Positions 1,666-58,095 of a DNA stretch of 64,000 nt are shown piece after piece. The stretch covers positions 9,332,485 through 9,396,484 of the forward strand of contig NC_134027.1 in NCBI RefSeq assembly GCF_964204645.1. The letters are read 5' to 3'. A program made the position numbers and the translations under genes. Positions within the stretch are counted from its first letter, which is position 1; the number at the start of each line of letters is the position of its first letter. The stretch is from Tubulanus polymorphus (lineage: Eukaryota > Animalia > Nemertea). Below the pieces are notes generated by a model that saw only the letters and a program-made list of their open reading frames with translations, ran no database searches and was not told the origin of the DNA.

Positions 1666-3885
1666 TCAGTGATGTCCACTGTGCCCATGTTTGTGTTGAT
1701 GTGTGGGTCTGTGTCCGGTACCGTGGTGTCCACGGTTGCATTGGATGGTTGCGTCCCGACTTCTTAACAACTGCGTCCATACGTGTTGGGACGACCTTCT
1801 GATCGTACAACAGTTCGATACATCCCTGCTCACTACCTAAAAGCAGCCAAATAAGAAGCATTAAATTCGAATATTTTATCAACAATGGAGGAGAGGAAGC
1901 TACGCTAAGGCCTACCCGGTATTGTTAAGACATGTGTTAAATTGGCCTCAAATCTGAATATATTAGTTTACTAACAGATTAAGATTCTAGGCCATTTAAA
2001 CATATATAGATAAATAATATATAATAAATAATATGATATCTTAAATGAGGAACACCGGGTTTTTACGCATTCAGTATCTAACTTGCTACCTTCATTGTAC
2101 ATTGGTGAGTGAACATCTGGGCCAGGTTGAAGCTTTGTCGATCGACCTCCTGCGATAATTTCAATCGCTGGCTCGTACCCGACAGATGCGCCCAGGCTGG
2201 ATGATGTGAGTGACTACGTGAAATGAAAGAAACAATTTCATGAATGATTCAGTACATTTATGGTAAGTATGCATGGGATGAATATCAATAGCATAGAATA
2301 CTGAAAAGTAATTTTTAACCGAACGATTAATCAAAATAACCAGTTCAAGTGCCCAAATAGAACGAATGGAGCTGACAAATGCAACTGTACAAAATAGCTC
2401 GCTCAACGAATTTTGCAAGGAAGCTCAAAAACATTATTTGACTTACGCGGTACGGAGCTCGTTACAGGTTTTTCCGGCTGCGTGCATATAGTGGTGTACT
2501 TCCACCGCACCAAGCGACGTACGGTCGGTCCTTTCTATGTTGTAGTGCACATCTACCCATTCACTACCGGGCTACATAGCAAAACAAATACGAGGACATG
2601 TCTTTTTATCAGTGAAAACATTTTCTGTAAATTATCTTTAGATCCAAATATGGAAATTTCCATTCAATTTGTTCGCCATTATAGCGTTGCATGGTCTCAT
2701 ATCATGTTAGGAAACCAAATTCAAACTAATTCCAATTAAGAATGGTCTCATGAAAAAGTCTCTCCTTCTTAGAACTTTTTGTTCGAAGTCCCCAGTCACA
2801 TTCATTACATACATCTCAATAAGCTTAACGTTAACGACGGGTACTAATGCGGACGCTACCGCCCGACACAATAAGACTTGTCCTTGCTCAATAAACGTGC
2901 CAAACGGTGCTACGGCTGTATGTTCATCGTAAGCAGATCTTTCATGAGATACACTTTGAATTCCAGATTAAGCGTCAACATTTGCGTCCAGTTGCAATCG
3001 ATCACATTGCGTTGCAAGCAGTCGCAATAAGTCAACCTGTCCACCTTAATTTTTATTCATAAATATTTACATTGCTTTTTCACGTACCAGATGCCGGAAA
3101 AGTATGTGTCCACCAATTCCACCATTTCGACGGTGATTAAGACAACAACATCCGTAAGTGGCTGGAAATGGGAGAATATACGTATGGAAATTGAAGCTGA
3201 TCCAAATTACTTTGCATATATTTCCAGATTAAAGTGTTATTATTGAAACAAGATCCAAGGTCATTTTTATTAGTGCCGCTATATCTATCTTTAACCAGGG
3301 GGTTAAATTAATCCATTGCCAATTGATTTCAACCCCGATGTTTCTGATGTGACACTGGCCCCAGAAGTGGCGGTTTATCATAGGAATATGTATATTTACC
3401 CGCCACAGGTGAGTCTGCTTGCATGTCGTTAGTCCTCATCCCTTCTACGGCAGCGGGAAGATTTGCTTCTGTTGATTCCTGGTCCAATTCATCGGTGGAT
3501 TGTGGCAATGTGTTGTCGCTTCGTTTGTGATGGTATACGTGCACGTGGTTTCCAGTTGCTTTTTCCTTCTTGCTGCCATCGTGAATGTATATATTTACCG
3601 TGCGTTTGCTTTCAAGTTCGCGCACGAACTTCCAAAGCGCTGATACGTCACGTTCCAGTTTATGGACAGCTCTGAACTCCCCATTTTCATTTTCATTATC
3701 TACCGTTTGAGAATGAACAAAAAAGAATCGTATCAAGTAAGTTTCATATAAAGCTGGTATTCCCGTCTTAATGGGTATGACGTGCGTATTGTAACTTCAA
3801 ACTTACCCTGTTCGACTTCGGAATGATGGTCGCAGTTAACGGCCGCGAAAGCCAAAAATAAAGATACCAACCACAAAATCTTCAT
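1666..3885 (-). CDS. Secreted His-containing protein with highly degenerate Cu/Zn SOD-like domain (paralog A, ~290 aa, 6 exons)
   Basis: Exons 3885-3807, 3699-3400, 3161-3088, 2571-2447, 2213-2090, 1836-1666; all GT-AG, phases 1,1,0,2,0, total 873 nt ending TGA. Signal peptide MKILWLVSLFLAFAAVNC; amphipathic segment AVHKLERDVSALWKFVRELESK; SOD-like segments ATYGCCCL..GIGGHILFRHL, EVHHYMHAAGKTC, SNCCTI; His-rich tail GHHGTGHRPTHQHKHGHSGHH. The SOD assignment is weaker than for the neighbour and leans on shared exon phases. Confidence 0.75.
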
Positions 3886-5014: not shown

Positions 5015-7689
5015 ATGGGTTGCATGTGGAAATTAGTGGCTGTCACAGCAGCAGTATGTTTGGTGTGGAAAACCGAAATATGTTTTGGTAAGTGCAACGA
5101 GAGGTTGGGAATAGGGTTTGTTGATTGATGATTTGACATTCAGTGCCAATACGGAGAGAAATTATTTATTTCATCTGCTGACAACCAAATAGGAAATCCC
5201 GTTTTCGATGCTGTATTTGACCGGAAATCGGAAGCCAATATCCGGACACGACGTCATGTGAATGATAACACCCATCACCACCACGAAGACAGCCACGAAC
5301 ACGATACCCACCACCACCACGACACCGGTCATCATGGACACGATGACCACCACCATGACAGTAGCCACGTGGATCACCATCACGATCACGGCACTAGCCA
5401 CAGCAGCCATCACCACGGGTCACATCGAGACAGTCATGAGCATCACGACCACCATCACAATCCCCATCATCATCATCAACATGGTACAGCACATCAAGTT
5501 GACACTCATCACAACCATCATCGTGATCACGGCCACCATGATCACCATGAGCCCATCAGTAAGTCAGATATCAGGGTTATCGACGGGTCGTGTCTACCTT
5601 CCATTTTCAAATTTCCATGCTATTTTTGTTGACGCCATCAGAGGAAAGTGGCTTGTGTCCTAACATAACAATCCGGGAAAAATAACTTCAGTTAGACTTT
5701 GCCCTAACCAACTTTGATATCATATTAGTCAGCGACTATTATATATGTGATAAGATTTTAAGCTTTACACAAATGATTAAAGTAACTGCTTATTCTCGGA
5801 TGAGCTTTGAAAACTAGTCCATGTTTTTAAAGGCAGTACATCTACTTCTGGCAAGCACCATGGCCAACACTATGACGCTGTCGTAAAGCATACCGATAAA
5901 CTCGGTCACACTCACAGCGATGTCATACATCATGAACACGCCCGCGAAGAGGATGAACGAACGGCAACCGAGGTTCAACATCTTAGTGGACACCACCACC
6001 ATCATCATCACCACCATGATCACCAGACTGGAAATCTAAATATGACCGATGAAACCCAGGATGATAACAGCACTTCTTCAAATGAATCTCTGACCGGTAA
6101 AGTATACATTTTACTTTTTTTGTTTATTTCAAAACATTTGTCCTTATATACATATAGAAAAAAATAGAAAGCTAATAGAAGCAAATACTTGATAAATGTA
6201 GTGAATTTTTTGAACATTTTTCATACGGCATCCATCGATTGTACTTTCAGAGATTTTTGGTAGATGTGATGTGAATAGTAATGATAATGGACTAGCAATA
6301 AACGGAAGCATCCATCTACGTCAGAAGGTGATCCATTATAAATATTTCATCACAAAAATAATGAGATGTGAAAGTATGATATTGAATGAAATCAATTTAT
6401 CTATTGATGATAATTTGCATCTAATTTTATTTATTTTTCCATCCTATTTATGGCTATGAAGTGTACGAAGAAATGTTGTTGTTGTAATATGAAAGGGAAT
6501 TCGCAACCCGTTGAAATGAAATTGAACTTGAAAACGTCCGGATCACGGGCGGCTACGGGAATTGTGGTCGAATTGCTAGAGTATGGTGTCATCACGCCGA
6601 AATGTGATATGATGGGTGCTCGATTCGGAGGAAATACAAACGCGACTACGAAGTACGTCACTTGCAATTTCGTTTATTACACGACGTTTTATTAGAAGTT
6701 GACTTACATATCATAGGCGGACAATTGAGCGAAGGACGACAATGAGTGAATTTCTTGAAATCGATGCTCAAATTTTCTCTACTAGGCTGGCATCAGGGTG
6801 GAACTTCCTCAATTCCTCAATGGGCGGGAGGCGAGCGGGAGGTTCGTTCGCAGCCACCCCTCCTTAAATATGGGCCCGCACAGTGGATTTGGAGGAGTTA
6901 AAAAAGTTGACGCACGTGAGAGATGTGCGTGATGTCGGCAAAAAACCCAAATGCTGGCACCTTTAGCCTACTTTTGAATGAATTGTAGCTGCAGTAATTA
7001 ATTTTTTCTAACCAGGTGTCTAACGTCTTTATTCTAAAAAAATCTCTTTGATGTACTACTTTCTATTCTAAATAATTTAGCATTAGAATTGCAAAGTGCA
7101 GAACCTGCACCTGGTGTAGATAAATTGAATGGGCCATATCGCTACTGTAAAATGTCCAATGGCTAAATCATAGTAATCGTGATAATGAATATTACACATA
7201 TCGAATAAGAAATTTCATTCAACTTGGAGACCATGCGGCAGTAACGTACGCATGGATGTAAAATATGATAGAAATTATATTCTAAATACATATTTTTCAT
7301 TTCAAATTTAAGGAATATAAGTACTCACGTAAGCGTTATACCTAATGAAGCTGGGGAAGTTGTTACTAAACTAGAAGGACAAGGGTTAACCCTCCGAGGA
7401 AAGGATACCATATTTGGAAGAGGGATTAAGGTTAGTTAGTATATTCGTATGTCAACAACTTAATGGGTGCATAATGAATTGTAAAACAAGTATATACTGT
7501 GACAAGTAACATTTTTTTTTGAAATACGCGGAATTCATAAATTCTTAGATCGGGAGGCGATGTCTTACAGTTGTTTTTTTAATCTCATTACAGATGACAA
7601 CGACGGTCAGTGAACCGGACCACGACCTGTTAGTCAACTGTTGCGTGATCAGCCAGGCGCCATCGGATCCAATATGGGACACGAATTAA
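5015..7689 (+). CDS. Secreted histidine-rich protein with C-terminal degenerate Cu/Zn SOD domain (paralog B, ~394 aa, 7 exons)
   Basis: Exons 5015-5087, 5193-5558, 5833-6096, 6251-6327, 6462-6652, 7313-7430, 7594-7689; phases 1,1,1,0,2,0; 1185 nt ending TAA. Signal peptide MGCMWKLVAVTAAVCLVWKTEICFG, RTRR site, His-rich exons, then GRCDV..INGSIHLRQK, ELLEYGVITPKCDMMGARF, NEAGEVVTKLEGQGLTLRGKDTIFGRGI, NCCVI. The acceptor at 6462 is the least certain junction. Confidence 0.82.
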
Positions 7690-8619
7690 CTAACTCAATT
7701 CATCGGCTTTAAGGAAATTCTAAATATAAGTCTAACGAAAGATGTCATTTGAACGATATACAAGTATACACCAGTCTCTAATGACATTGGTTAGTCGTTT
7801 TTTCTCGATCTAATCTATCAATGCTTCGTCAGACGGGGGCTGGATCTAAACCACAGGAAAAACCGATTATGAAAGATATGTATTTTGGTTAAAACTGAAA
7901 GGCGACGGCGGACGTTCCCAGGGGTGTATTCAGGGTGTGGTCTTGGCGGTCCGGACCTCTTACTTTCCACCGAGGTTGCCCTTTCCAAGAAGACATATAA
8001 ATCGTTAAAACCTGCAAATTTGACGATCAACCTAACGGAACTTGCATCTTCATGGGTGAAATTCTTCAAAAATATCTTCATCACCGAGGGCGGGACCCGG
8101 TCCTGCTTCATACCCCTAGTGGCGTTACGTGGCTGATTCATCAGAGAAATGCATTCCGTATCCTAGATCCTGGTCTTCCAATTTTCCTACATCCGTGGTC
8201 GACGAATGCTTCACAAGCGAAAAGAATTCTCGAGAGAAACCAGATACAAAACTGAAGAAACAAAACTATATATTTTTTTGTTACAAACTTACTTCTTATT
8301 TCATTTACGATATAGTCATCGATCATCGATATTTCACGAACAATTTTACATCTCGGTTAAAACCATCAATCAATTCATATTCAATCTATAGCGTGAATAT
8401 CAACGAGCGGCTCTTGTTTATATCTTCCGATTAATGATTGAAAAATTCCCATCGAAAGCGAAAGCACAGTGTCGACGACTCCAGCCACGAACCGTACTCC
8501 GTACTCGGTAGCTATCGGAGAAAATCTAAGTTAGTATCGAAGCAATATTTTCCACGATTAGTCTACTACAAAACGTCTTTCAACTACGCGAAAAGTTGAT
8601 CGCTTAGATTAAAAATCTA

Positions 8620-8793
8620 CAGTCGAACTCGCTTAATTCGGATCGGTTTGATACGGATTTCGATCTAATCCGGATCTCAGGTTCAGTCCACCTATGCATA
8701 AACGTATGTTAATATGTTGTTTTATTCGGATTCTCATAAACCGGATGAATTCCATTGATCCTGAATGATCCGAATTAAGAGGGGGTTCCACTG
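8620..8793. mobile_element. Tc1/mariner (pogo/Tigger-like) MITE, copy 1
   Basis: TA|CAGTCGAACTCGCTTAATTCGGATC ... GATCCGAATTAAGAGGGGGTTCCACTG|TA: terminal inverted repeats, TA target duplication, 174 bp, no ORF. Confidence 0.75.
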
Positions 8794-8805
8794 TAGTTTA
8801 CATAG

Positions 8806-9204
8806 GAGACGAGTAGTACTATTATGGGTAGGTTAACTAATTCATTTGGCGCATGAGCTTTCGCTACTCAAGTATACAGTAGAATTCGCTAAATTCGGAT
8901 CATTCTGGACCAACAAAATTCATCCATTTTACGGGAAATCCCGATTAAAAGTAATTTTCTTGTATATTAGTGAACAAATGGACTGCAAATATTGTCCGGA
9001 TTAGACCAAAATTTGGATTAAGCCGATCAGGATTAAGCGGGTTTGACCGTAGTAGCTTCATCAGGTGAATGAGTATAATCAACGGGAAAATAACATTATT
9101 TTTCCATTGATTATACTAAATTCACCTGATAAAGCTACTATACATTAGAAGCGAAGGCTCTTGCGCCAAATAAAATAGTTAACCTATAAAGTACAACCCG
9201 TCTC
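8806..9204. mobile_element. Foldback (fully palindromic) element of ~225 bp interrupted by a MITE
   Basis: 8806-8876 is the imperfect reverse complement of 9139-9204, and 9050-9140 is a near-perfect hairpin; removing 8877-9049 plus one TA restores one continuous palindrome. Confidence 0.7.
8877..9049. mobile_element. Tc1/mariner-like MITE, copy 2 (inverted relative to copy 1)
   Basis: TA|CAGTAGAATTCGCTAAATTCGGATC ... GATCAGGATTAAGCGGGTTTGACCG|TA; 173 bp; same termini as 8620-8793. Confidence 0.7.
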
Positions 9205-10879: not shown

Positions 10880-12924
10880 TCATTTGCCGCACGCGTATAG
10901 TCTCGTCTCTTCTCTCGCTGCAAAAGATAATTCGCTCAGAAATTTAAACACATGTCGCCGTTGCTAGCGAATACAATTAAACCCACTTAATCAAAGAACT
11001 AAAATTCATTGATTCATCTTGTTAATCATAACTAAGACCAGAACTAGCTCCTGATAATCTGGATCTAATTTATTGGTTTCTATTGTACTGTATTCAGTAG
11101 TTTTTACTGCACAGGTATATATCGTTTTTACATCAAAGGGTGCTTGCATATCACACATTCCATTAGTCACTTACCCAATTCAATAGCTTTTAGTTCGTTC
11201 TCCATCCATACTTCAGCTACCGCATTGTTAAGTGGGTCATCCGGATTTGGGGCACTTAATAATGCTTGTATAGATAGAAGCACAGTCCTAATCTGGAGAG
11301 CTGGACTCCATTTATCTGACCAAGAAAAAGAGAAATATCAGAACTCATGAATTCGTTTTTGAAGATGCACCATCATCTTTGTAACAGGATAATGAGGTAT
11401 AGGGATAAGGCTAAGGTCAATTTATACCTTGTTTCTCATTTCTGCCGAGCTTCGAAGTTGACCCGCCAGCCACCGCCTACCTATCCCGCGCATCACTTTT
11501 TTTTAGAAATTATTATCAAGCTAACCATAACAGACCCGGCAGCTATAGATATGAACTGATTACAAATTTTACTGCAGTTAACAAAATGACCCGGCCGATT
11601 AGGAGAAACAAGGTATCATTGTTTTCAGCCCAAGTGTCCCAAAACCGTCGGGTTTGAATTCATTCATACGCACCTTTCAAAATATCCAAACATATACGAC
11701 CCAAATTATCTACATTGGGATGGTATATTCGCGTTAGAAAGCGCACTTTCGGAGCCGCCATTGGATAATCTTCCGGTAAGAAGAGTTCTAATTTGAATGT
11801 ACCAGTTTCATACGGCGACTGAAATCAGAATTCATCCCTGTATATAGCCTGTGTAAATGCAGGGGGTTCCGAGGGTTCTGAAATACCGTCGAGCTTTGTC
11901 TGTGCCCCTTGGAGATGCCCCTAGACCCATGGATTTGACATAAAAGCGCCCTTGTTTGGCCCCTGAAAACCACACAACTTTGATGGAAAGTGCCCTTGTT
12001 TGTCGTGATTTCACATAGAAAGTGCCCCCCCCCCCATAATAACGAGTGCCCTTAAACAATTTGGAACCCCCTCGAGATAGGGCCCTGGATCCGCCCCTGA
12101 AATGATATTTTGTCTTTTTCGAAAAATGATCCATCAAAAATATCGAGTACAAGTACCGGTGAATGGTTTTTCATACACCTGAGACTATCTAAATTTGATA
12201 TAAGAAAAACTGAGATTAGTGACATTTCGACTCAATTCTATGAGCTGTTTTAAAAACTGTCGCTTATCAAAATTCCTCGTCCTTGTTGCTACTCTTGTTT
12301 TCATATTTTTACTAGTCATGTAGGCCTAAGCTTAATCAGTTTTGAAAATGGCTTATAGAAATGAGTCAAAACGACCTCTTCAGTTTTTCTTCACAATTCT
12401 GGGTGAGGCCTACATATACTTACATCTTTAGGTCCGTCCATCACTACGTAAAATAGCCGACCATTTTCCTCATCAGGAGTAGCTTGGATCCCAGGGACGG
12501 GTTCTGTCATAAGTCGTTGCGTTTCCTGGAAAGATCAAGAATTTTGGATGAAACAGGCAAACTGACAGAGCTCTTAACCTACCATGATATCGAACACATG
12601 GCATTGTATGCATTATGCTTGTTATTGGTCAGTCACAGTGACACATGTCAGTGCTCCCAGTCCGGACCCAGTCCCCACCAGGTCCCAGACGAGACGTCCT
12701 GGCCAGAATCATTTACCTATGCAAGTCATACTATATGGCCTAACTCTAATCTTATCCATATCTTCGACCCCGTCAACTTTAATGTTTAAGCAACTTCTGT
12801 GGAACTTTTCATTAATCATGATCAACAGATCTCGCCAAAAAATTAAATCGAAATTCGCTCATTTTCAACACTCAACCATTCAATTTACACATACTTTTGT
12901 GATACGCCTGGGTAGTCCTGACAT
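10880..12924 (-). CDS. UBE2N: Ubiquitin-conjugating enzyme E2 N (Ubc13)-like, 151 aa, 5 exons
   Basis: Exons 12924-12895, 12525-12424, 11818-11674, 11315-11175, 10917-10880 (456 nt). [15 protein letters not shown]..., [62 protein letters not shown]: HPN motif and catalytic Cys present. Confidence 0.95.
11870..12099. mobile_element. Non-autonomous DNA-transposon-like insertion (CAGGGGCGGATC-type terminus) in UBE2N intron 2
   Basis: Right end GGATCCGCCCCTG is the reverse complement of the CAGGGGCGGATC terminus seen at 55124; internal GTGCCC(T) subrepeats; left boundary approximate. Confidence 0.5.
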
Positions 12925-15490: not shown

Positions 15491-17879
15491 TCACGAAGCC
15501 GACGTATTTTGAACATTGTCCTTCAACGACGTGCCGATCTCGTCGAGATTTTCGATACTGCCTTTCGAACGTATCTTGGCGTGTATTTTAAAGAATTCCG
15601 GTTGATTTTCGCCATCTTCCTCGGCTACATCATTGACAGATGATTGTTTATGTTCATACTAAAAAAAAAAATAAAACAAACTATATCAACTACCAATTGA
15701 CATTTCAGTTTAAAATTAGATTACAGTACAACTTGCGTTAGTCAGTTGGCTGTTAGTCAGAAAATCGGACCAGTGTAGGTCCAGAATTCTAACATTGCAT
15801 TGATGAAATTGCATTCAAAACGTAGATATCCGAGTGCTAAACGTCATCTTCTTTCATGTACCTCTTTAATTTTATTGGCCTGTTTTTCCAGTTCTAATTC
15901 GAAACTTGTTCGTTTGCTTTTCTGAATTTCAACCTGTTCTTTCCTCTTCTGCGAATCCCTTCTTTTTTCCATCTTCAATTGCAATTCCGTCTTCTGATTC
16001 AACACGTTTATTCCCCTGAAAAAAAAGATGGAAAACATCATTCCAAACTTATGCATCAAAGTGATGATGTATGCATGAAAATCTAATTCTGAAAGAGAAG
16101 AGAAGTTTTGAAGGAGCTGAGTGTAGATATGACCAGATTAAGAAAAATGTGACATTCGATGACAAGAGCAACACGTTTCAACATTCAATTATTACTCAGG
16201 TTCAATGATTAGTATTGAAAAATTGATTCTAGATCATTTTGGTTCCAATTTAGATTCCATGAGGTAAGAATAACATCACGTCAAGTGATAACTGCATGAC
16301 AACAGTCACCTTGGAAATAGCCAGGGTTTTAATTCGAATAGCTGGGTGGGGCTGTCAATGTGGTTCATTAGTACTTTACCTGTACTAGCACTACGTATAG
16401 GAATAGAAACATCATCAAAGCTCTTATGTCAGATATATATAGTAGAAGTCTGCGCATAAATGATGAGGAAATATTTGAAAAAAGATTTAAAAATCTCCTA
16501 GGATATATTGCCTAGAATTCTACCCACAGAGACTTACATTTTAGAATTATATAAAAGTTGTCGATGCAGTTCTTGGTGATCTTTTGACTCAGCGCAAGGA
16601 TTCGGTAATTTTTTCGGTTCTATAAGACCCTGAGGTTTTCCGTTGTCCACATCAGGCAACATATTGCCATCGTCATTCTGATAGTCGGGCTCCGGTTCGG
16701 GTACATCTGGAAATGGATGACCTGGAAAAAAACAAGAAAAATTAAGCCCACTTAGCCTACAAGCCAAAACTATATTTTCATATAGACCTGTTCAGATATA
16801 TCGTAAGGAAACTTCAATTTTGAATTTTCACACAAGCCAGAAATCCAAAAGTACAAAGCAAAGAATTGTAGTAGATAAAAATACTGTATAACAAAATATT
16901 TGTATTTGTACCTCATTCACATCCTAAAAAAAACTGAAAATATTCAAAGAGCTTAAATAATTATGTCGAGAACACTCTAAATATGTCGAGTAAATATACA
17001 TTATTAACCCTTTGAACCTGGCTCATGACACAATTTTGTAGTTTATAACATACTCAAACACACTAAAATGATAAGAAAAAATCATTTTGTTTCCCTTGCT
17101 ACATCATACCCATTTTGTCGGAAAATTTGAGCTGTTTGAGCTGTGAACAAGAGGGATTAGCTACTAACTAAGACTTCTCATCACCAAAGTCACCGCGATA
17201 GGTACAGAAAGACACCTTATAGCATTGCGCGGAAGGATGACTAAACATTTCCCAACAAACATTAGACATTATTTTTCTCAAACAAAAGCCCCACTAAAAG
17301 TGCTTGTGTTCCACAGTTGTGAGTTAAGTTGACCGTAGAGCAATTTCAATGCTTAACATTTATCATGCATAGATACTAAAAACATACATAAAATCCTAAA
17401 TTCAATTTGGTAGGATCTGACGTTAAACAATAGGGCCTAAATAGCGGAATAAAAAGATATAAATAAACCATGGGTATAGATTGCAATTAGAGACATCTAG
17501 TCTGTGTGTGTGTGTGTGTGAGTGGAATATCAATAGAATTTTTCCCACGATAAGAATTTAGAATTTCCAAAAAGTTTTTGTACCTACAACAACGATACTT
17601 CAATCAAAAAAGGGTTACATGATACGAGTGTGACAAATAAATGCGTATGAGGATGTTTTCCCAATATTGTTGATTTTTGTACAGGAAATACTGGAAGCAC
17701 GCAATAGTATTGTTTATAGAAGATAGAATCGAGAGGATGGGCATCTTTCTGTGGTGACTAAAAAACCAACGGCGCTCGCTGAATAATCAGTGGAATATAA
17801 TAGGGAAGCAGCTTCGATTATGTGCAACGTAAGGAAAATAAGGCATCCGAGTAATAACAATAACCACGAGACAGATGAA

Positions 17880-17964
<85 letters not shown>

Positions 17965-20900
17965 CAGATGTAAAAATATATCAACTTTAACATAACACTA
18001 ATAAAGTAAATCTATGGTCATATGATACTCTTAAACTGCAACTGCATGTCACACTTAGTATTCGCCAGTTATCTGTGAAGGCTGAAAGCTATCCTTATTG
18101 TCTACGTATTAGGCAACATATATCGTTAATACATATCTAATCAAAAATTGACAATCAAAACGTGTATTGTACGTGATAATTCTAACGCCGAATGTGTTTC
18201 ATAAGCAGTTTTCATTTGAGTTAGAGCTGAAAAAAAATCATTAAAATTCTTTTTCGTGTTTCACTTTTTTACATCTACTGTGTGGCATTGACAGGATTAA
18301 TGAAAGCGTTACAGAAATGTAGAGTTGATACATGTTGAAGCAACCCACCAAGTTCGACAAGTTTCCACAAAAATATCTAGGGGAACTACACTAAAAGATT
18401 GATCCCTAAATGGTTAAATGGGAATCCCTATGGATCCATTACCTACCATTATCGTGATTTCGGAACTTATTCCGGTACGAATTATAATGATGATACTTAA
18501 CGACAAAAGGCACCAGGGAACACATTTTGGGATCACATTTTAAAGTCGTTTCAAAATGTAACGCATTAACTATTTTGAAGCTAATGCACGATTTGAATGT
18601 AGTATTTTGGAATGCAGAATATCGAAGAATTTTTTCAACCGAAACGTGGAAACTTGAAGACACAAGCAGATTGAGGAAAATTCACCTTGTTGCCATTCAT
18701 CAAAGCTTATCATAACTGGAACTTGAAAGCAGGGATCATCCGCATTGGGGCCATGGTGATTGTACCGGTCATCCGGAACAGGACTATAGCTCTTTCGCGG
18801 GCTCAAAGGAGGGATAGGACTGTGGCCTATTCTTGGGCTTTGAGGTGCCGGGCTATTTCTTGGGCTCGGCTGAGGTGCAGAACTCTGACCAATTCTTAGA
18901 CTCAAAGGAGGGAGAGGACTGTGGGTTCTCGGGCTCATAGGAGGGACAGGACTGGAGATATTTCTCGGGCTAAATGAAGGGACAGGACTGTAGTTTCTCG
19001 GGCTCAAAGGAGGGACAGGACTGGAGATATTTCTCGGGCTCGAAGGAGGGCTGGCTGTATTGGGAAAGAATTCCTGTCCTATCAGGCACAGACCTGGAGA
19101 CCCGACGGGGCTGATCGGGGGCGACATTCCAAAATGATGCTTTGACGGGAGCATTATATTTCTCACAGGAGGACTGCACGGCGGAGTACGAAATTCATTT
19201 TTCGGTAAATTACGCGGACTGGACGGTGGAGGAGAGCCGTATTGGTAAAAGTCCCTACTACTACCGCAAGAGACAGCCAGCGGGCTTTGAGGCGGGGTTC
19301 GAGGAATCGGAGAATGAGGGCTATGTAGAGGTGAGGATCGCGAGGTTGGAGACCGTGGACTCATCGGAGGCGAGCGAGCGGGAATCGGAGCAAGGGGAAA
19401 TTTAGGACGGTGTGATGGACTCGAAGGAGGTGAAGATAAGTCGACAACATGCTGCTGCTGCTGCTGCTGCCGCTGTTGGTGAGAATGAGCTGGAAAAAAA
19501 CACCGCATAACAAAATATACATTACTCAATCGTAAAATATAAGGATAATTCATAAGGCAAAGATGTGAAGTTGATCTCTTCAATAAAACATGCCTTCCCA
19601 TTGTATTGATATCATACACCCCTAAAACCTGCCTAATTCGGGAAAAATGATAAAAATCTAAATCTTCCACATTCAATGGTGCTATAGTAGAACTCGCTTA
19701 ATTCGGATTATGACTTATTCGGATGAAATATCTGGTCCACTTAACCTGGAACCATGTTAACTATTATTCATAATTCAGATCTCACTTGATTAATCTTAAT
19801 TTGAAGAAATCTGGGCAGTCACTAGTCATCCGCATTACTGTATGATAATAACAGAAACATTTGAATGAAGTTGGGTTCAAGGTTAACCATTTCCGTAAGA
19901 TTTAGCTTAACCCGACCAAGCTAATATAATAATAATAAGCCAAGACAATTTTGGGGATTAGCGATGGTTTGATAAAATGAGAGAATCATAAATCAAAACA
20001 AGGCAGATATAAAAGTCTAGAAAAAATGAAAATCAATACGTTTGAAAGCTAATTGTCGATACACGCAGAATTGGGATGGAGACAGCTTGATCTGTTATAT
20101 ACAATACGCAGTACACAGTGGACGTGTGATCGATGAAATCAAAACAACAACATTTTTTATTAACAAAACAGCGACGTTGCTGCCAGATCGATTCATTTAC
20201 CTCCTGGAAGATTCGCTTGCATACGATGCATCGCTTCTAATTTTCTCAAGTGCGCTTCTCTTTCGCTCTGAAATGATAAAGATAAACGGGGTCTTCAGCT
20301 TAGATTAGTCGATGTTTCGTTCGCCGTGTAGTTGAATTGAAGATTTACCCGCAACCAACACTTAAGGCATTTCACTATTGCGATATTCAGGGATCTTAGG
20401 GGTTTCCCCAATTACATTTTTTCATAAATTTTTCCTACCCCTAAAAATTTCATATTGATACATAGAATGTATCATTCGTGTATACTTGGTTCGGCTGGGC
20501 AAACTAGACCGGCTTCCAGGTCAGAGTACATCCCCTGCCCCAGATACACAAATCTCTGTTAGAGAACCAGATGCAACTTCTCTTGATTCACCCTGAAACC
20601 CAAACAACGATCTAAGGCCAAGGCCAACCAAGAACAGGCAACGTAGGCCCATTCAAAGTTAAGAAGTGTCAATCATCAATAGCATCGACAAAATGTTTTC
20701 ATAATGTTTATATAACGTGTAGAGAGACATTTAGGCATGTAACCTAAAATTTCAAATTCCAAGGAAAATCTTATTCTGAGACAATTTTTCTGATTTTCCA
20801 TACTTTTTCCATAGCCATAGAAAAAAACAAACAAAGTTTCCATAGCTTTTCCATGGCCTGGAAACAAATTCACATTTTCAAAAAACCTGTAAGAACCCTG

Positions 20901-26982: not shown

Positions 26983-29900
26983 ATGGCGAGCGACGCAGTG
27001 GAGAAGCGGCGTGATTCGAAAAAATCAGCTACCGATTCTGCGGTTCACGACGGAAACGCCGTGCGATTAAAACCGAAAATCACCCTGGTCAATGGAGTAG
27101 CTTTGGTCGTCGGTACAATCATCGGATCCGGGATTTTCTTGACGCCGAAAGGAGTTCTTGATGGAGCCGGTAGTGTAAGTGTTCAAACAAACCAAAGTAC
27201 AATTCAATTAAGGATATTTGAGTTGATTATATAATAATTACAATAATTTTGAAAAATTCAGTTGATAGGAGATCTAAATAGTCCCTATAGCCTACTTTAC
27301 AAATAAGCCAGCATTATTCAAAGTTTCCACGCAACATTTATTTTTGGCATACAATAATAGATAAGATAGCTGGGACATACTCCGCGCGTAGGCGTAGTGA
27401 CCGGTATTTTATAATTCCCCATGATCAGTGTTTGTGTTAATTACAACAAATTGTTCTACGCAAATTTGCTTTAATGTTAAGAATGGGCCTATTCTTATTC
27501 TCATTCTCTATACCAGGAGGAATAAAGGATAGGCAAAGGTCAAACAGAGCCTAACAAACCATATAAAAGATACCAGCTTTGAAGTCAATCGATCCTTGTT
27601 ACAAGAGCTTGTTACACATTAGCATGATGCAATCACCTCTCTAGCTTCAGCAGTACAGTAGAAGGGAATCGAATATTATTGGAGATAATCAATCTTGCTT
27701 TGTGGTTTAAAAGTTACTTAATTTGAGGCCACACCAAAATTGTTCATTTTCTCAGCAGTAAGGATGAATATTTAAAAGTTTTCTTTTAATTGTGCTAGTT
27801 AGTTTGGGCAAAGTTCCTTAAGTTTTCCAAGCATCAATGGTCGATGCAAAAACGGTCAAGTCAGCAATCGACGGACAAAACCAATTCTATTAGGCCTACA
27901 AATATATTTCAATAACAAAGAATGTAGGCCGATTAGAATTGGATATTGGCTCCCAAGAGCTTACTTCTCGACCAACTTCAGTAGACTAATTTAATATAGA
28001 CCCCACAAACCTTTTAATAATGATAATTAATGTTTTATACAGCGCATAATCCAGCATTTAAAAACTGATCACAGGGCTTCACATGATAAAAGCCTAAAGA
28101 GCAATTTTAAAAGTTGGCCCCGAAGATCTCCAGAGATGTTTTAGACTAGAGCTCTCTGGGAAGCAGCTGATTCCACAGGCCTTTGATGGAAAAGCTTCAG
28201 GACCAAAATACTTTTTTCTGTCGTTTCAGGTTGGATTTTCGTTGATAATTTGGGCAGTATGCGGCGCGCTGTCCCTTCTCGGGGCTCTGTGTTACGCCGA
28301 ATTAGGTACAACGATTACGACTTCCGGTGGAGATTACATTTACATCATGGAAGCATTCGGCGGTTTGCCAGCATTTTTACAACTTTGGGTAAGTTGTTAT
28401 TTGATTCTTTCATTCATTTATTATTTCATCCTTTTATCGAGTCAGTATCCTTTTCTGTTAACGTCACGTAGGTTTGATTTTCTAAAACATTTTATCGCTT
28501 TTCTTAAGAAAGTTAATTTCAAATTGAACTTATCATTCGATTTATCTTTTGTCCAGGTGAATTTGATCGTTATAAGACCAACAGCTCAAGCGATTGTCGC
28601 CCTCGTGTTCGCCAACTACGCGTTAGTGCCATTTTTCCCTGGATGTGATCCTCCAGACATAGCTGCCCGCTTACTAGCTGCAATGTGTATATGTAAGTTT
28701 TAGGCATTGACAATAGAAGATTTAGTTGAACAAAAGCTCAGATCTTAGATGTTGTACACTTTAAGGCCCTACAATGTGACTAATTTATAATAAGCATGAA
28801 CAGGTCTAAGCCTATTTGTCTCTATGTGTTATTTATCTGCTAGTGTAGAGCATTAGGAGACGAATGTATGGTCAAGAGCTTCTACTTGGTAATAGTCAAT
28901 TGATTAACTGATTAGTTAAATTTGAAAAAAAACTTTAGTTAAAAGAGTTTATGATCCATGGTCTGGTCGATCTATTATGCGGGAGATAGTGAATGGCATG
29001 TAATGTTGGAGTAGGCCTAATGAATGAATAGCTCAAACAGACATTCAGACTGTAAGAACTAAAACCTTTGTTTGAACTTAATATAGCAGGCAATTTTTCC
29101 ATTGTAGCATTTCCTAACTATTGTCCCTTTATCACATCCCACTTATTAACTCTTACACTGTAACAAAAACATTTCTAGGGCCCCTATTATGAGATTTACT
29201 ATATAGACAAAAGCAAAACAAAAAAAATCTCAATAGGCTTATGTTGTGTTGATATGATTATACATAAATAAATTGTTTATTATCTTGCCTGACTTATGAA
29301 TTGAAATATCACGAAAGTAATTCAATCAATTTTCAAAAAGCTTTCACCAGTTTATGGGCATTAGTGGACCAAAATAATCTATATTTTTTAATGAGCCTTT
29401 TAAAAATCACAAGACTAAAAGATCAATCGCTAAGTTTAAGCACAGTGTACCTAGATTCCTTTGATAACCTCATGGACTTGGCACTGAATTTGTCAACTTT
29501 AGTTCCGTTTACCTTTTTAAAAGATACTTATCGTTAAAGAAATATTTACTCATGGACTATCGTTGATAATTGTACGTTTTAACAATCTGTTAAAATCTTG
29601 GTCGAACAATTGGTAGATTATTTTCTTAAATCTGCTTTATCTCAAGGAAACAATCTCTGAATTTGCTCTGTGAGTAACAATTGATTTCTTGAATTGAGCC
29701 TTCTCAATATCAATACTATCATGATCAATAAAATCAATAAACATTCATTCAGGTACCCAGTAACCAGGAAGCAACATTTCTGTGGACAACCATTCTTAAT
29801 TACTCCTTGCGATTATTACTCTAGATTCGGATACCGCGATACTTATGAAATGTCGAGCCTACAACAAAAATCTGTACATAGATATATGGGTTTTCCTTCC

Positions 29901-46560: not shown

Positions 46561-49500
46561 CTACAAATGCACGTCTGCCGATGTATCTTTCTCATATTCC
46601 GGTATGCCTTTATAAAAGTCCTTCCGTCGGAATATCCACGAAAGTCTCTTGAGCGATCGTGTGCTCTTCGTGCTGACCAAACTACCAGTCGGCGTCGCCA
46701 TCGGCAACCGAACCGGCGATCGGTGCAATGTCTCGATTTCCTGGCTACGTTGTTCCAGATAGTTTTCCAAAGGCGTCACTAATTTTAAAACGAGCAGCTC
46801 TCCACAATCTTTGATCATCGCCACAACCTCTTCGTGCGAACTCCATTTCGTATCTGTATCCCCAATGGCAACTATGAAATCTCCAACCCTCATTGAAGCT
46901 TTCTGTAAATGAGACATGAAAGGCTTTGCAAAATGTATCAAAAGTGAACGAAATTTTTCAGAAATTTTCATCAACAGAGTAGCCAACCAGTAGGCATTTT
47001 TACACAGTAACTTTAACCCTAAAGCCTAACTCGATTATCGGATTGTTAAGGAATTGGGACCAGTCACAGATTTTTCAGTCGGATTTTTCAATCTTTGTGA
47101 TGTGAATGTACTTAAGATCATTAAGCCTGTTCCCGGACTGAAGCCACAATCGTAAGGATCGGACATGTTCTATTTCTTACGATCAAAATTCATGATACAA
47201 ATTTGCAACTTTTCTTTTCTCATACATCATATATCAGGCCCACACTTACCTGCGCTATACTTCCTGTCTCGACCTCCGCTACGATAGCCGGCGCTCCGCC
47301 TCTCACGCTGAAACCATAATCCTGGGTATCCTGGGATTCTTGCGGTTTCATCAGGGAAATCATTCGCGGTGCCGACCAGTTCTGATTGGCATTGAAAATA
47401 CTCACAGGACCCTGAAAATCGCAGATACAATAAGCAACCCGAGAGAAATGAGGCAAATTAAATGCTGACGATTAAAAATAATATACGTACCAGGTCACGA
47501 AACAAATCTTGCACTTTATACTTCACTAGATCTATGCTTATTGGCTCTATTTTTTGTTGTGATTTTCCTGTAGGCAATAAAATGTAAATGTATATACCGG
47601 TAATAATTATAGCAAAAATATACACACTGCTACCATTACAGCTATAGAATACTCAACTACCTTGTATAGCGGGAACCTTGAGCAAATCAGAGAAGTCGTC
47701 CTCTTCTTCTAATTCAGAAAATTTGCTTAGAGATCTGAAGATAGAAATTAGGTAGGATTGGTCTCCCATAGGGTAAAATCAAGCACAGATTATCATCTAT
47801 CGGCTACCGGCCAGCTCCTATTGTGACACCAACAGCTAATTGAAACAGGGAAAATGTAGGGAAAAGTGATCAGAGAACTGTGGACCAAGAAACTCCTTGG
47901 CATGATTAGGAATATGGGATATTGACAAATTGAAGTTCTGGAATTTCTCGTTTGATGGCGCTAGTCAGAACTGGGAAATAGAACCTTTAACTGATAATTG
48001 ATAACCGTTCGTTTCTCTAGGATATCTAGGAGATTAAAGCTATTTGATTGGTCTAAAATAACACTTACCTATCGTGAGCGTATCGAAGCACCTCTTGGAA
48101 TGTATCGATTTTACGAAGCTGTTTACACAGGCCGTGTATTCGCAGCGCGTCTTCATGCTGCACGAGCGCCTCGCTGAGGTGGCCTTTGCCTGAAACGAGG
48201 TGCGTGATGGGATCTGAAAGAATCCGCATCGGTCGTCGGGAAAAAGAAGAGAGAGAGAGAGACAAGCGGTTAGTTAAAAAACATGCAGCAAACGCGGTAT
48301 TGCAAGCGATAAAAGCATGGGTCGATCATAGCTTCCGATACAGGATTCTATGCTATGAATTAATTCCATTATAAACCATTAATGGCATATAGACCCCCGA
48401 GATAATATGGTAAATGCAGATAAGAACTTCAAATCAAATATACCTATGTCACTATTGAGGCTATTGCAAGACGACTCAAATAAATATCTGCGGCATTTTA
48501 ACATGCAACGTTCTATGTTGGAGAGTGTATAATATATTGCAACATTAAATACAGATGAAGTTTATGATTCTCAATATTACAGCATAAATTTGATTACCCA
48601 ACTATAGGTAGATTGGGAATAATAGATCGATATTGTTATTCAATAGTGCACACAAGCATTCTGTAGATATTTGATGCAAAATCACATGGATTGTAATGTA
48701 TATTTAATTTAATAATCCTCTTGATTGAAAGAACTTCATGCATTGCAAATTCACTCGAGCATTCTAATGCCATATAGAATATTTCATGCTTCTTGCATCG
48801 AAAATATTTCAGTATATAACTTTAGAATTTGTATCAAAACTTTTCCATTATTTAATTCAACTTCGGTATTCAATCATACCTAATGCAGTTTTGTCCTCTT
48901 CAAACAGTTGCTTACTAGGATCCACCTGCCTGTAAAAAAATCCACGAATCAACACAAGCAGATGGATAAAATCTCCGTAGTTTTTTAAACGAGCTGATAT
49001 ATGCTGCATCAATTCCTACACAAAATGCGTTTTAAGTTTAGGTTTGTAACGTAAGTAATTCTTACTTATGTGAATCAGTGGTAGAATTGACATAAAGGCT
49101 ATGTGATGCCTTTCTTAGTTCATCTTCGTCATCAGAATCTACAAAATAACATGAAATGTTCATCGATACTATACACCATTCGTGTACATAAAGAGTAAAT
49201 CGAAGAGAAGGGAAAATCCAAATATAATACAAACCCTTTTTTTGAAGAATACCAATCGCTGTATAGTAATGCGACAACGCTCCGTAATGAAGAGCCTTGA
49301 CATGAACCATCGAAATCCAAGAAAAAGGCAGATATTCCTTCAATCTCGACTCGCTCATCAGTTCATATGTGTAATGGTACGCATGTGAAACCTGATAAAA
49401 AACGATCGGGTGTGAAATTAATTGACAAAGGAGACCAGAATCGCACACACACACACCGATAAGTACGATCGAGTACTTACAGCTGCGGCCTCTTGAGCAA

Positions 49501-52500
49501 CTTCGATTGAGTTTCTGACACCGGGCTGTACACCACCCAACATACGTTTCTCATATACGCACTCTTGAGCCTGCGCCTAGAAAAATGGATCATAATTTCA
49601 TAAAATAAACCCGATCTAGGGATAACCACTTCTAGATTTTGATGGGATCCTTACACGGTTGAACCTCTTTAAGACGAAACCTGTTTATCACAATGATGTT
49701 CCAGCATGTCCCAGCTGAGATAATCATATCAGTCAAGATTTGGATAATACGAAACCCGTTTAATACAACAATTTCAATTTTGCCCACATGATTTGTATTA
49801 ACGCGGTTCCACTCTATGAGGGCCTCCAGAGTGACCTATCCAATAAAAACTCATACAATGTTCCCCGCAGAAGCCTGGTAATACCAATCCCTTTCTTGAT
49901 CTGCCCCACTATTCCTGGATACTAAACCAATCCAAAAAATTGTTGCAATGAATAAATATTTTGAAAATCTACTGTTATTTTAACGCTCAAATGTGTTCAA
50001 TCACTCAGGCGCACGACACAGTAACACAGTTAATATAACGCACAGTACTGTGTTAACACCCATCTGCTGGCAACTTCAGGAATCTACTTGGAATTTGAGG
50101 CACTAAATTACGGTGATATTAAACCCCGAAAATTCATCAAAAATACTATTTGACTTACTAGCATCAACTGAATCAACATCTCTAATGTTTTCGACTGCAT
50201 ATCCATACTCGGCGCGTGACTGAAATTCTCGCGTAAATACTTCATGACGCCAGCAGCTCTCTCGAAGTTGACGATCGCCGCGTTCAAGCCATCGGTTTTC
50301 AAGCGATCTTGTTTCGAGGCAATTTGCGAGTAGAGCGCGCCGATGTTGAAGAGTACGCTACCTTTCTCGAAGCCAACCGAACGCTGCGAGCTGGGTACTC
50401 CCGTTAAACTATCATACCTAAAACAATTCAATAATCAGCTCGTTTTTATCAAAGCACATCTGATAATACTAGTACATTGTAATAAAAAAGGGTATCAAAA
50501 CATATTGAGTAAAGCTATTAAGTGACCCTTGCTTAACTCCACATATCTTCATTTATCTATTACCTGAAAACAAAAATTAAACAGTCTACCAAGGATTGAT
50601 CTTAAAGCAGGGATAACCCTGTTATTTATTCAATTGGTAGATTTCGTTTGATTAGTTTTGATTTGTTATCCCTCACAGACCCACCACACCTGCCCGGAAC
50701 GAAACAGGGGGTTCGATACAATCATCACACAGTGATAACAATAGATAGTCAACTATATTAGCAAACAGCAATTAAAATATCTTGAATTCCAAGTCCATGA
50801 GCATCGAGTGCTAAAGCAAGATAGGCAAGCCTATATGAAAGCTTACATACATTTTTCTCATTGATTTATCGGGAGCAATCTCTATTGTGAAGTACTGCTT
50901 CACGTCGATAACAACTAGAGTTAAACGGGTTATTATTAAAAGCCAATCTTATATTGCTTCCGCCGATAGAACAGTTTACTTAAGACGATTGTTCGTGACT
51001 GAAAATTCATCGGAAAAAATGTTGACACAGTTGTCGAAGAAGGTAAATAAACCAATAATGACAACCACACGAGGATATCAGCGACAAAGTTCAATTCTCA
51101 TGGTTAAGTGCCTTCATCATTTCGTGGTTTAGTTCCATTCAGTTTAAATCAACATTTACGCATTTTTGTCAAACTAACAACTGGAATCCGCATTCAATTT
51201 TGTTCGGAAAGCGTTATCAAGACAAGTAGGGCTCCTTAGAGAAAATGTTAGCATTGATAAGCACCCGGGGACAAAATCCCCTTAACAATGATCAAGAAAT
51301 TACACCTAGTAAATGGACACATTGGTGGGGCTTCTATTTAGTCATCATCTGGGACAAAGTCATTACATACCATTGGAAGAATATTCCGTGACTTCGATTT
51401 TGCGTGAAAAATCGTTTGTCGATGAAGTAAAGATGGTTGTAGTATTCGAACAGTAACTGTATGCCGGATTCATTTCTCTGCGGCGTGCGCATTGCCTAAA
51501 AACGAATGACAAGATTAAAATCCCCGATGCGAGGACATGTGCAGCAAAGTCGAAAAATGGTCAACGATAATCATTCAGTTGGTAGAAAGAACAATCACAG
51601 GGAACTTTTTCCCAGGCTTTGAAAAGCTATGGAAATTTTGTTGTTTCTTTCACTATGACTATGGAAAAGGTATAGTATGGAAATTTCAAAAAAAAGAATT
51701 TTCTTTCTATTTTTTATGCCTCAATGTCTTACTACACATATGATTACAAACTTGATAACAATACACTTGGATTTTCTCATCGATGGCACTTCTTAACTTT
51801 GAATGGGCCTGCATTGCCTGTTCTTGAGGATATGGAACTTAGGGGTATGGAAAATCTATAATTCGGGTAGGCCTATGGAAAATGAAACTGGGAAACCTGT
51901 AAGAACCCTGCTGAATTAGAATAATGTACCATGCGCAGATCTCTGAATTCACGAAGCGCGTCTTCATAATTCTCGCTGTCTTCGCTATAATGTTCCAATA
52001 TGAAGTCCTAAAATGACAAGAGAAATAAGATTAAATCGAAGCAGAAATTGTTTTATACGTTGAGATATCATCAGGTAGAAGTATTGCTCGCTATGAGTCT
52101 CCGCTCAAAGTTTTGCTTCAGAAAACAGGTACCTGCCTGGAAACGGGGCTTTGGGGTAGCTTTGTGCCCTTTAAAAAGTCATTGTAAATAAATTTGGGGT
52201 CAATATTTTTCGAAATTTAATCATAATTTTCATTTTTCTTTTTTTTGAAAATAAAAAGTAGGCCTAATCCATTCTAAAGTGTCAGGTACTACTCAGGTTT
52301 AATGTCATTAAATTCATAAATGGAGACGTAGTTTAAGTTAAGGTTATATCGAAAAAATAATATTTAAGATCTGTCCCTTTTCAATAGGACACTGCCCCTT
52401 TTCACGGTGAAAAAATGCCCTTTTTCTTGAAATAGAACTGCCCCTCAAAAAAGCACAGCACGGGCAGGGAAAATGTTATATTTCAGAAAGTCCAATCATT

Positions 52501-58020: not shown

Positions 58021-58095
<75 letters not shown>

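Follow-up and report, generated by a model that had tools for sequence, protein, structure and literature searches.

We identified a gene, here called B, in the ribbon worm Tubulanus polymorphus (phylum Nemertea) whose predicted product joins a very diverged domain, likely derived from a Cu/Zn superoxide dismutase (SOD), to a long histidine-rich arm. The domain shares with the Cu/Zn SOD superfamily a weak but above-chance homology, the sites of the disulfide Cys pair, and the intron positions and phases. In our preferred reading, to which we give about an even chance of being right, B is a secreted glycoprotein whose likely SOD-derived and inert barrel acts as a disulfide-locked hub for a metal-binding His arm of 166 residues. 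The gene lies in the window, by which we mean the whole stretch of 64,000 nucleotides that was analysed.

Gene B was modelled on the forward strand as seven exons with canonical splice sites and an open frame of 394 codons, inside which no stop codon or frameshift was found. The phases of its introns are, in order, 1, 1, 1, 0, 2 and 0, and its parts are the following.

5015..5087, + strand: exon 1, with the start codon, a predicted signal peptide (about 24 residues) and a phase-1 donor; read from the sequence.
5193..5558, + strand: exon 2, a short propeptide up to RTRR and then the main His-rich tract; AG/GT ends, read from the sequence.
5833..6096, + strand: exon 3, the second His-rich tract, which includes a run of nine His; 3' joint to 6251 in spliced contigs.
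Within 5833..6096, + strand: exon 3 linker, rich in Ser, Thr and Asn, with N-glycosylation sequons at residues 216, 225 and 230.
6251..6327, + strand: exon 4, with Cys240 and what are predicted to be SOD-barrel strands 1-2; phase 1 in, phase 0 out; both joints in contigs.
6462..6652, + strand: exon 5, predicted strands 3-4, E297, L299, Cys308, R314 and a shortened Zn loop; phase 2 out; joints in contigs.
6462..6497, + strand: Cys insert, formed by the first 12 residues of exon 5, five of which are Cys (261 and 265-268); acceptor 6462 in spliced contigs.
7313..7430, + strand: exon 6, 118 nt, with N325, T328 and His329 nearby, and predicted strands 5-6 and Greek-key loop; phase 0 out; both joints in contigs.
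7594..7689, + strand: exon 7, T365, a short electrostatic loop, L376, the CC motif (C379, C380) and the stop codon; joint in contigs.

Contigs of two sequencing runs from one sample, X5 and X6, contain the joints 6096^6251, 6327^6462, 6652^7313 and 7430^7594, all of them GT..AG. These runs were treated as RNA because their contigs skip the introns of gene B, and this single sample provides the evidence for expression of the gene. The contigs extend through exon 7 to 7770-7781, and in run X4 intron sequence of gene B is covered, unspliced. No contig of run X7 aligned to the gene, which says nothing about its expression. An X5 contig carries 626 nt upstream of position 6030, compared with 636 coding nt upstream of that position in the gene model, so that its length fits exons 1-3, the joint seen directly there being that of exon 3 to exon 4. 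The same joint places the His-rich arm and the SOD-like domain on one transcript. Two alternative acceptors for exon 5, at 6471 (in frame) and 6496 (out of frame), were absent from the contigs, an assembly form in which rare variants are dropped. A preliminary description of this DNA had placed the SOD-like part at 6251..7689, with introns of phases 0, 2 and 0 and a penultimate exon of 118 nt. These details are borne out: 6251 is the first base of the exon for strands 1 and 2, 7689 is the end of the stop codon, the phases are those at 6327^6462, 6652^7313 and 7430^7594, and the spliced joints delimit the penultimate exon as 7313..7430.

The predicted protein begins with an apparent signal peptide (residues 1-24). 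The basis for this prediction is a hydrophobic stretch at residues 7-17, the most hydrophobic 11-residue segment of B (score 2.87). The propeptide ends in RTRR, which we take to be a furin-type site. The His arm that follows (residues 47-212) has 67 His in 166 residues (40%) and 17% Asp plus Glu. Its His codons, 37 CAC and 30 CAT, are interspersed, and this mixture points to selection on the protein rather than to a plain triplet repeat. The SOD-like domain comprises residues 235-385 and includes three more N-glycosylation sequons. Between its predicted strands 2 and 3 lies the Cys insert, in which four of the five Cys are encoded by consecutive TGT codons; from the intron to the Cu-ligand motif there are 33 codons in B, compared with 21 in an intact SOD gene designated L124. 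The four TGT codons in a row suggest that the insert is intron sequence taken into exon 5. Since five is an odd number, at least one of these Cys would stay unpaired or join a second chain if the protein is secreted.

The SOD origin of the domain is supported by its gene structure. L124 is a whole intact gene of the CC type, and it has the same four introns as B, with phases 1/0/2/0 (4/4 positions). Intron-position mapping, which the preliminary description had named as a check, showed that the joints of B coincide with SOD positions and phases. For a broader comparison, metagenome contigs were scanned for the H80 motif preceded by a splice acceptor, which yielded 41 loci with 30 distinct intact exons; the phase-2 acceptor is part of the scan pattern and hence is not an independent count. 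A GT[AG] donor stands directly after the GR motif in 15 of the 30 exons, at 118 nt in twelve, at 115 nt in one and at 121 nt in two. Another seven have a GTC or GTT donor at 115 nt, three are intronless at that point and five were unreadable.

Sequence comparisons gave the same indication, most strongly at the level of exons. Aligned without gaps, exon 6 of B scores 35 against 15 intact SOD exon blocks of 39 residues, whereas shuffled sequences score -34 +/- 12 and none of 5000 reaches 35. The ungapped comparison of exon 4 with its counterpart in L124 was equalled by 1 of 10000 shuffles, and the whole B domain scored 61 against L124, a value reached by none of 2000. Against a profile of 42 SODs (out of 91 usable of 117 rows, with 14 baculovirus-like or isolate loci excluded) the domain scored 13.9 bits, which 1 of 2000 shuffles reached. 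Pairwise scores of B against 117 SODs from viral contigs were near noise, with a best value of 10.9 bits and shuffles of up to 10.5. Pfam returned no family for six exon queries of B, and a PDB sequence search with exons 5 and 6 gave no match. The Atlas matches for exon 5 were small viral clusters with low recognition and were set aside. None of 26 candidates among longer proteins was a relative of exon 5, which is weak evidence, and the search did not recover B itself from the database.

It is highly unlikely, in our estimate, that the domain has another origin, whether as a chance likeness or as a different SOD-like barrel such as CHRD. The B exons did lack a Pfam or PDB match and anything informative in the Atlas, CHRD is a metal-free SOD-like barrel (PMC13382577), and the Atlas model of the neighbouring gene A (see below) fits CHRD and Sod_Cu equally. 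However, neither source would readily account for the agreement of four introns with those of SOD in position and phase, for an exon of exactly 118 nt, or for ungapped exon matches and correctly spaced Cys. We therefore regard the B domain as very diverged and likely SOD-derived.

To read the active site we used SOD1-style ligand numbering (after PMC13017621) and aligned B by anchoring on the introns. None of the four Cu ligands is kept (H46 is E297, H48 is L299, H63 is R314 and H120 is T365). At the Zn site, the same register gives R314 for H63, a deletion for H71, N325 for H80 and T328 for D83, and the catalytic Arg, R143, is replaced by L376. The disulfide Cys sites are kept at their expected places (C57 as C308 and C146 as C379). 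Counts that need no alignment agree with this picture: exon 5, the expected home of H46, H48, H63 and H71, has zero His, the whole SOD-like domain has three (256, 329 and 373), and exon 7 has no Arg. In addition, both active-site loops are reduced compared with L124, the Zn loop by 6 residues (15 instead of 21 from C308 to the intron codon) and the electrostatic loop by 12 (13 instead of 25 from T365 to C379).

One site depends on the register. HMMER placed H329 on H80 by a shift of 4 residues, with the other three Zn ligands still lost. In exon 6 the shifted register scores 22 after gap costs, compared with 35 for the intron-anchored one. It is the less likely of the two, both for its lower score and because two gaps that offset each other would have to fall within an exon whose length is conserved. 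The earlier claim that every Cu/Zn ligand was lost thus holds for 7/7 in the preferred register and becomes 6/7 if H329 corresponds to H80. The site-by-site readings of the preliminary description, from H46 through C146 and including the shortened Zn loop, came out the same in the intron-anchored alignment, and so did its loss of the catalytic Arg, given L376 at the site and a last exon devoid of Arg. What it had overlooked were the shorter electrostatic loop and the 12-residue insert with five Cys that begins at acceptor 6462. Its term, a catalytically dead SOD scaffold, has good support from the sequence, in which the Cu ligands and the Arg are lost. As encoded, B is not an active Cu/Zn SOD, with the Cu ligands, the Zn ligands, Arg143 and a full electrostatic loop all wanting, and from what is known of the family its old site would have no dismutase activity.

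Superoxide might still be removed elsewhere in the protein, by Cu held on the His arm or at a new site formed from His256, His329, Glu297 or the Cys loop. Peptides that bind Cu through His can mimic SOD (PMC10892282), and His329 may equal the old H80. Relocated catalysis of this kind nevertheless seems very unlikely to us, given zero His in exon 5 and zero Arg in exon 7, and given that active Cu-only SODs are described as keeping all four Cu histidines (PMC13017621). Rather, a protein that has lost the Cu-binding residues and the catalytic Arg and has a long His arm likely binds metals and does not destroy superoxide.

The same divergence could be expected of a decaying duplicate under little selection. 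It is extreme, no orthologue was found among the 26 candidates of the exon 5 search, and B, unlike its neighbour A, did not turn up among database proteins. We consider decay extremely unlikely, however, as the frame of 394 codons is intact, the splice sites are canonical and spliced RNA is present; moreover, the Cys and Gly residues of the barrel are kept, and the changes fall only at active-site positions and loops.

The ancestor of B was likely an extracellular (SOD3-like) SOD rather than SOD1, as suggested by the Cys pattern (C240 and the CC motif), the gene structure and the signal peptide, although few genes are informative on this point. The strand-1 Cys and the CC motif of B (C240 and C379/C380) are features of the SOD3-like lineage and are the same in L124, which ranks 4 of 47 by local score against the B domain; under such strong divergence the overall score is not decisive. 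B lacks an intron near G56 that is present in several intact genes. This intron is absent in both informative genes of the CC type (2/2), L124 among them, and present in 2/3 informative genes of the CG type, the third of which is without the intron after the GR motif as well. Human SOD1 has the intron near G56, together with a phase-0 intron after strand 2, a phase-2 intron before the H80 motif, a phase-0 intron after the GR motif and a 118-nt exon. Cytosolic SOD1, the comparison chosen in the preliminary description, was thus apt as to the three shared introns and the 118-nt exon, but it usually has the near-G56 intron, it has CG instead of CC and it has no signal peptide, so that the extracellular lineage fits better. 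In other respects SOD3 and L124 differ from B, as they keep all ligands and both loops. Human SOD3 is not known to have a His-rich arm. Its disulfides are C45-C190 and C107-C189 (PMC12774472), and from these pairs we predict the bonds C240-C380 and C308-C379 in B.

A second gene with a SOD-like domain, A, is located next to B.

1669..3885, - strand: gene A, six exons encoding 290 aa, with a signal peptide, a SOD-like domain and a short His-rich tail; exon model.

The protein encoded by this model is identical at every residue to P0002, an uncharacterized database protein (LOC141902707). The two genes are arranged head to head, with start codons 1130 nt apart. The domain of A has intron phases 1/0/2/0, as in B, and the motif NCC.I; like B it has Glu at the H46 position, and it has His at H48. 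The gene also carries a Cys triplet. Among Atlas features for A, extracellular Cu/Zn SOD clusters came first (0.82), which we take as a lead only, and the Atlas model of A matched Sod_Cu and CHRD rows equally (TM 0.51 each). Sequence scores of A were lower: 5.1 bits against the SOD profile, near the top 1% of shuffles, and a score against L124 that 273 of 2000 shuffles reached. As these scores are near noise, the case for a SOD origin of A is made mainly by gene structure and the Atlas lead. The likeness between A and B is insignificant (32 of 1000 shuffles), and it is gene structure that makes the two likely paralogs. A MAFFT alignment of the B exons to A put them in the wrong places and was discarded.

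Searches with A returned little else. Among 1.84 billion representatives the only relative of A was A itself, Pfam gave only DUF7591, under its cut-off, and a PDB sequence search gave three weak unrelated matches. AlphaFold modelling of the A domain alone was uninformative (pLDDT 44.7, best Z 5.3); supplied with an alignment of 16 SODs, which makes the design circular, it reached pLDDT 54.6 with no Foldseek match at E <= 0.001. No further copies of the SOD-like domain were found in the window. A rhophilin exon is also encoded there and is 100% identical to P0001, which like P0002 is a record of T. polymorphus.

Based on these features, we propose a function for B that is modelled on proposals made for dominin, cavortin and pernin. 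By analogy with the wider family, B would be exported and glycosylated, its short propeptide would be removed at RTRR, and the disulfides C308-C379 and C240-C380 would lock the barrel. The His arm may then bind many transition-metal ions, while the barrel would oligomerise and the odd five-Cys loop might link chains. In body fluid or mucus, the resulting particles could serve as a buffer or carrier of Zn, Cu, Ni or Fe, or could sequester these metals. Metal binding by the arm could serve a role unrelated to the old site, which differs from the earlier idea that metal binding had moved there. Nemerteans have a CSRP (PMC12217663), and this protein could cover extracellular dismutation.

Tubulanus secretes a tube, and a structural role for B is the main rival reading. 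B, perhaps with A, could be a building block of secreted tube or mucus that sets in seawater through His-metal cross-links and disulfides of the Cys loop, with the barrel as a node. The 40% His arm and the clustered five-Cys loop would suit this role, as would the His-rich tail and Cys triplet of the head-to-head neighbour A, and a mussel glue protein provides an analogy in its His-Zn driven, pH-triggered curing (PMC13022425). On the other hand, our literature search, which included the available text of PMC6410017, gave no composition of the tube, and neither superoxide nor histidine is mentioned in the main text of a paper on toxins in the mucus and proboscis of another palaeonemertean (PMC12846013). 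We regard a structural role as unlikely, though well worth keeping in mind. A more specific form, in which A and B are co-secreted, ribbon-worm-specific material proteins, with the barrel as node, a pH- or metal-setting arm of 67 His and a chain-welding five-Cys loop apparently derived from an intron, strikes us as slightly more doubtful; it would represent a tube or mucus chemistry undescribed for Nemertea.

A role in immunity is improbable, if still worth considering beside metal handling. Here the dead barrel would recognise microbial surfaces and the His arm would starve or damage microbes by means of metals, and dominin and cavortin are indeed reported to bind pathogen patterns (PMC6530089; PMC13017621). 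However, the exon 5 search among longer proteins returned no relative of B that would bear such an annotation.

Inactive secreted SOD derivatives are already known; B adds a fuller loss of ligands, a His arm, a cluster of Cys and a new phylum. Our literature search, made mostly outside subscription journals, found no nemertean SOD derivative and none with such a His arm, and the supplements of nemertean proteome studies could list B. With B, ribbon worms would join bivalves, flies and tardigrades as animals with inactive secreted SOD derivatives, and B exceeds the oyster proteins in ligand loss. It would represent a clean case of a former enzyme fold that has changed too far for Pfam or pairwise comparison to recognise, but whose descent can still be read from the positions of its introns. 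Should the His arm and the Cys loop build tube or mucus, work on underwater materials cured by metals would gain a new lead. If B is a plasma metal buffer, it would be a convergent copy of dominin, which is useful but not surprising.

Among known systems, several lack the catalytic residues of SOD, as B does. Drosophila secretes a SOD, Sodesque (Sodq), from which catalytic residues are missing (PMC1847502), and the CHRD domains of chordin are metal-free SOD-like barrels without the two active-site loops (PMC13382577). Both resemble B as secreted SOD-like domains devoid of catalytic residues, but a His-rich arm goes unmentioned in the available text of either source, and CHRD is repeated four times within a BMP regulator. 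Cu-only SODs and CSRPs share with B the absence of a Zn site and a short electrostatic loop, and some CSRPs, in arthropods and tardigrades, are without any Cu site (PMC13017621). CSRPs nevertheless have 4-12 tandem domains, with four Cu His in the active ones (PMC13017621), whereas the single domain of B is without Cu His; the predicted B protein is neither a Cu-only SOD nor a CSRP.

The most similar proteins in general design are cavortin and dominin of oysters and pernin of mussel, abundant plasma proteins of bivalves that have SOD domains without SOD activity, bind metals and form particles (PMC6530089; PMC9118643; PMC12784942). In the plasma of oysters and of one mussel, the principal proteins are such inactive, metal-binding derivatives (PMC6530089). 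Dominin, cavortin (Cg-EcSOD) and pernin resemble B in having a secreted SOD domain, secretion being predicted for B, that has lost most ligands. The extent of the loss differs, however. In the oyster ligand table the second Cu His is kept in 63/63 domain rows and at least 2/7 ligands remain (PMC9118643 Table S5), whereas B keeps none or at most one. That second Cu His, H48, which all oyster rows retain, is L299 in B and His in neighbour A. The simpler guess is that B and the bivalve proteins lost their ligands independently, rather than descending from a common dead ancestor. Their size differs as well, as dominin is about 19 kDa by sequence (PMC6530089) and B, with its His arm and Cys loop, is about 41.6 kDa once the signal peptide is removed.

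Beyond the head-to-head pair formed by gene A and gene B, which has a predicted secreted SOD-like domain and a His-rich arm, the window holds parts of several other genes, together with repeats; the second exon of gene A is listed with them:

3400-3699 (-), second exon of gene A (residues 27-126 of its database protein, P0002)
8613-9186, nested inverted repeats
11167-11824 (-), ubiquitin-conjugating enzyme exons (Pfam UQ_con)
15491-16791 (-), DUF1151 (FAM107-like) gene exons
about 17885-17963 and near 58030, long (TA)n microsatellites
18570-19697 (-), long Pro/Ser-rich open frame of 375 codons with SP-rich repeats, upstream of the DUF1151 exons
28098-28703 (+), amino acid permease exons (Pfam AA_permease_2)
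46564-59950 (-), rhophilin-2-like gene with BRO1 and PDZ domains (database protein P0001)

Across the matched exons, P0001 is identical to the rhophilin-2-like gene. Judged by its sequence, the ubiquitin-conjugating enzyme is presumably similar to UBE2N/Ubc13, and the Pro/Ser-rich frame may be the N-terminal part of the DUF1151 gene.

Downstream of gene B, a separate contig from run X5, which we take as RNA, ends at 8310-8400 (-), approximately 530 nt beyond the gene B transcript end, possibly marking where a different transcript stops. The nested inverted repeats, with arms of 48 nt (8829-8876 and 9139-9186) and 49 nt (8731-8779 and 8889-8937), are probably small non-autonomous transposons. 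Short repeat-like pieces similar to them were also seen in the 660-nt intron of gene B, with loose contig ends near 6777.

Among the viral-contig Cu/Zn SODs compared with the gene B domain (loci L004-L118), many have the Cys motif C-x-R-T-[KR]-[AS]-x-x-C-x-C near the N-terminus. Fusions of the SOD with additional domains occur in several of them (e.g. L008, L012, L030 and L047).

In the database model, the second exon of gene A begins at 3699 (region 3699-3708, -). The exon has a weak, below-cut-off match to DUF7591 (Pfam) and includes two similar copies of a V-x-I/V-Y-x-H motif. It also encodes a short amphipathic stretch with a Trp at its centre, which may resemble the N-terminal oligomerisation helix of SOD3.
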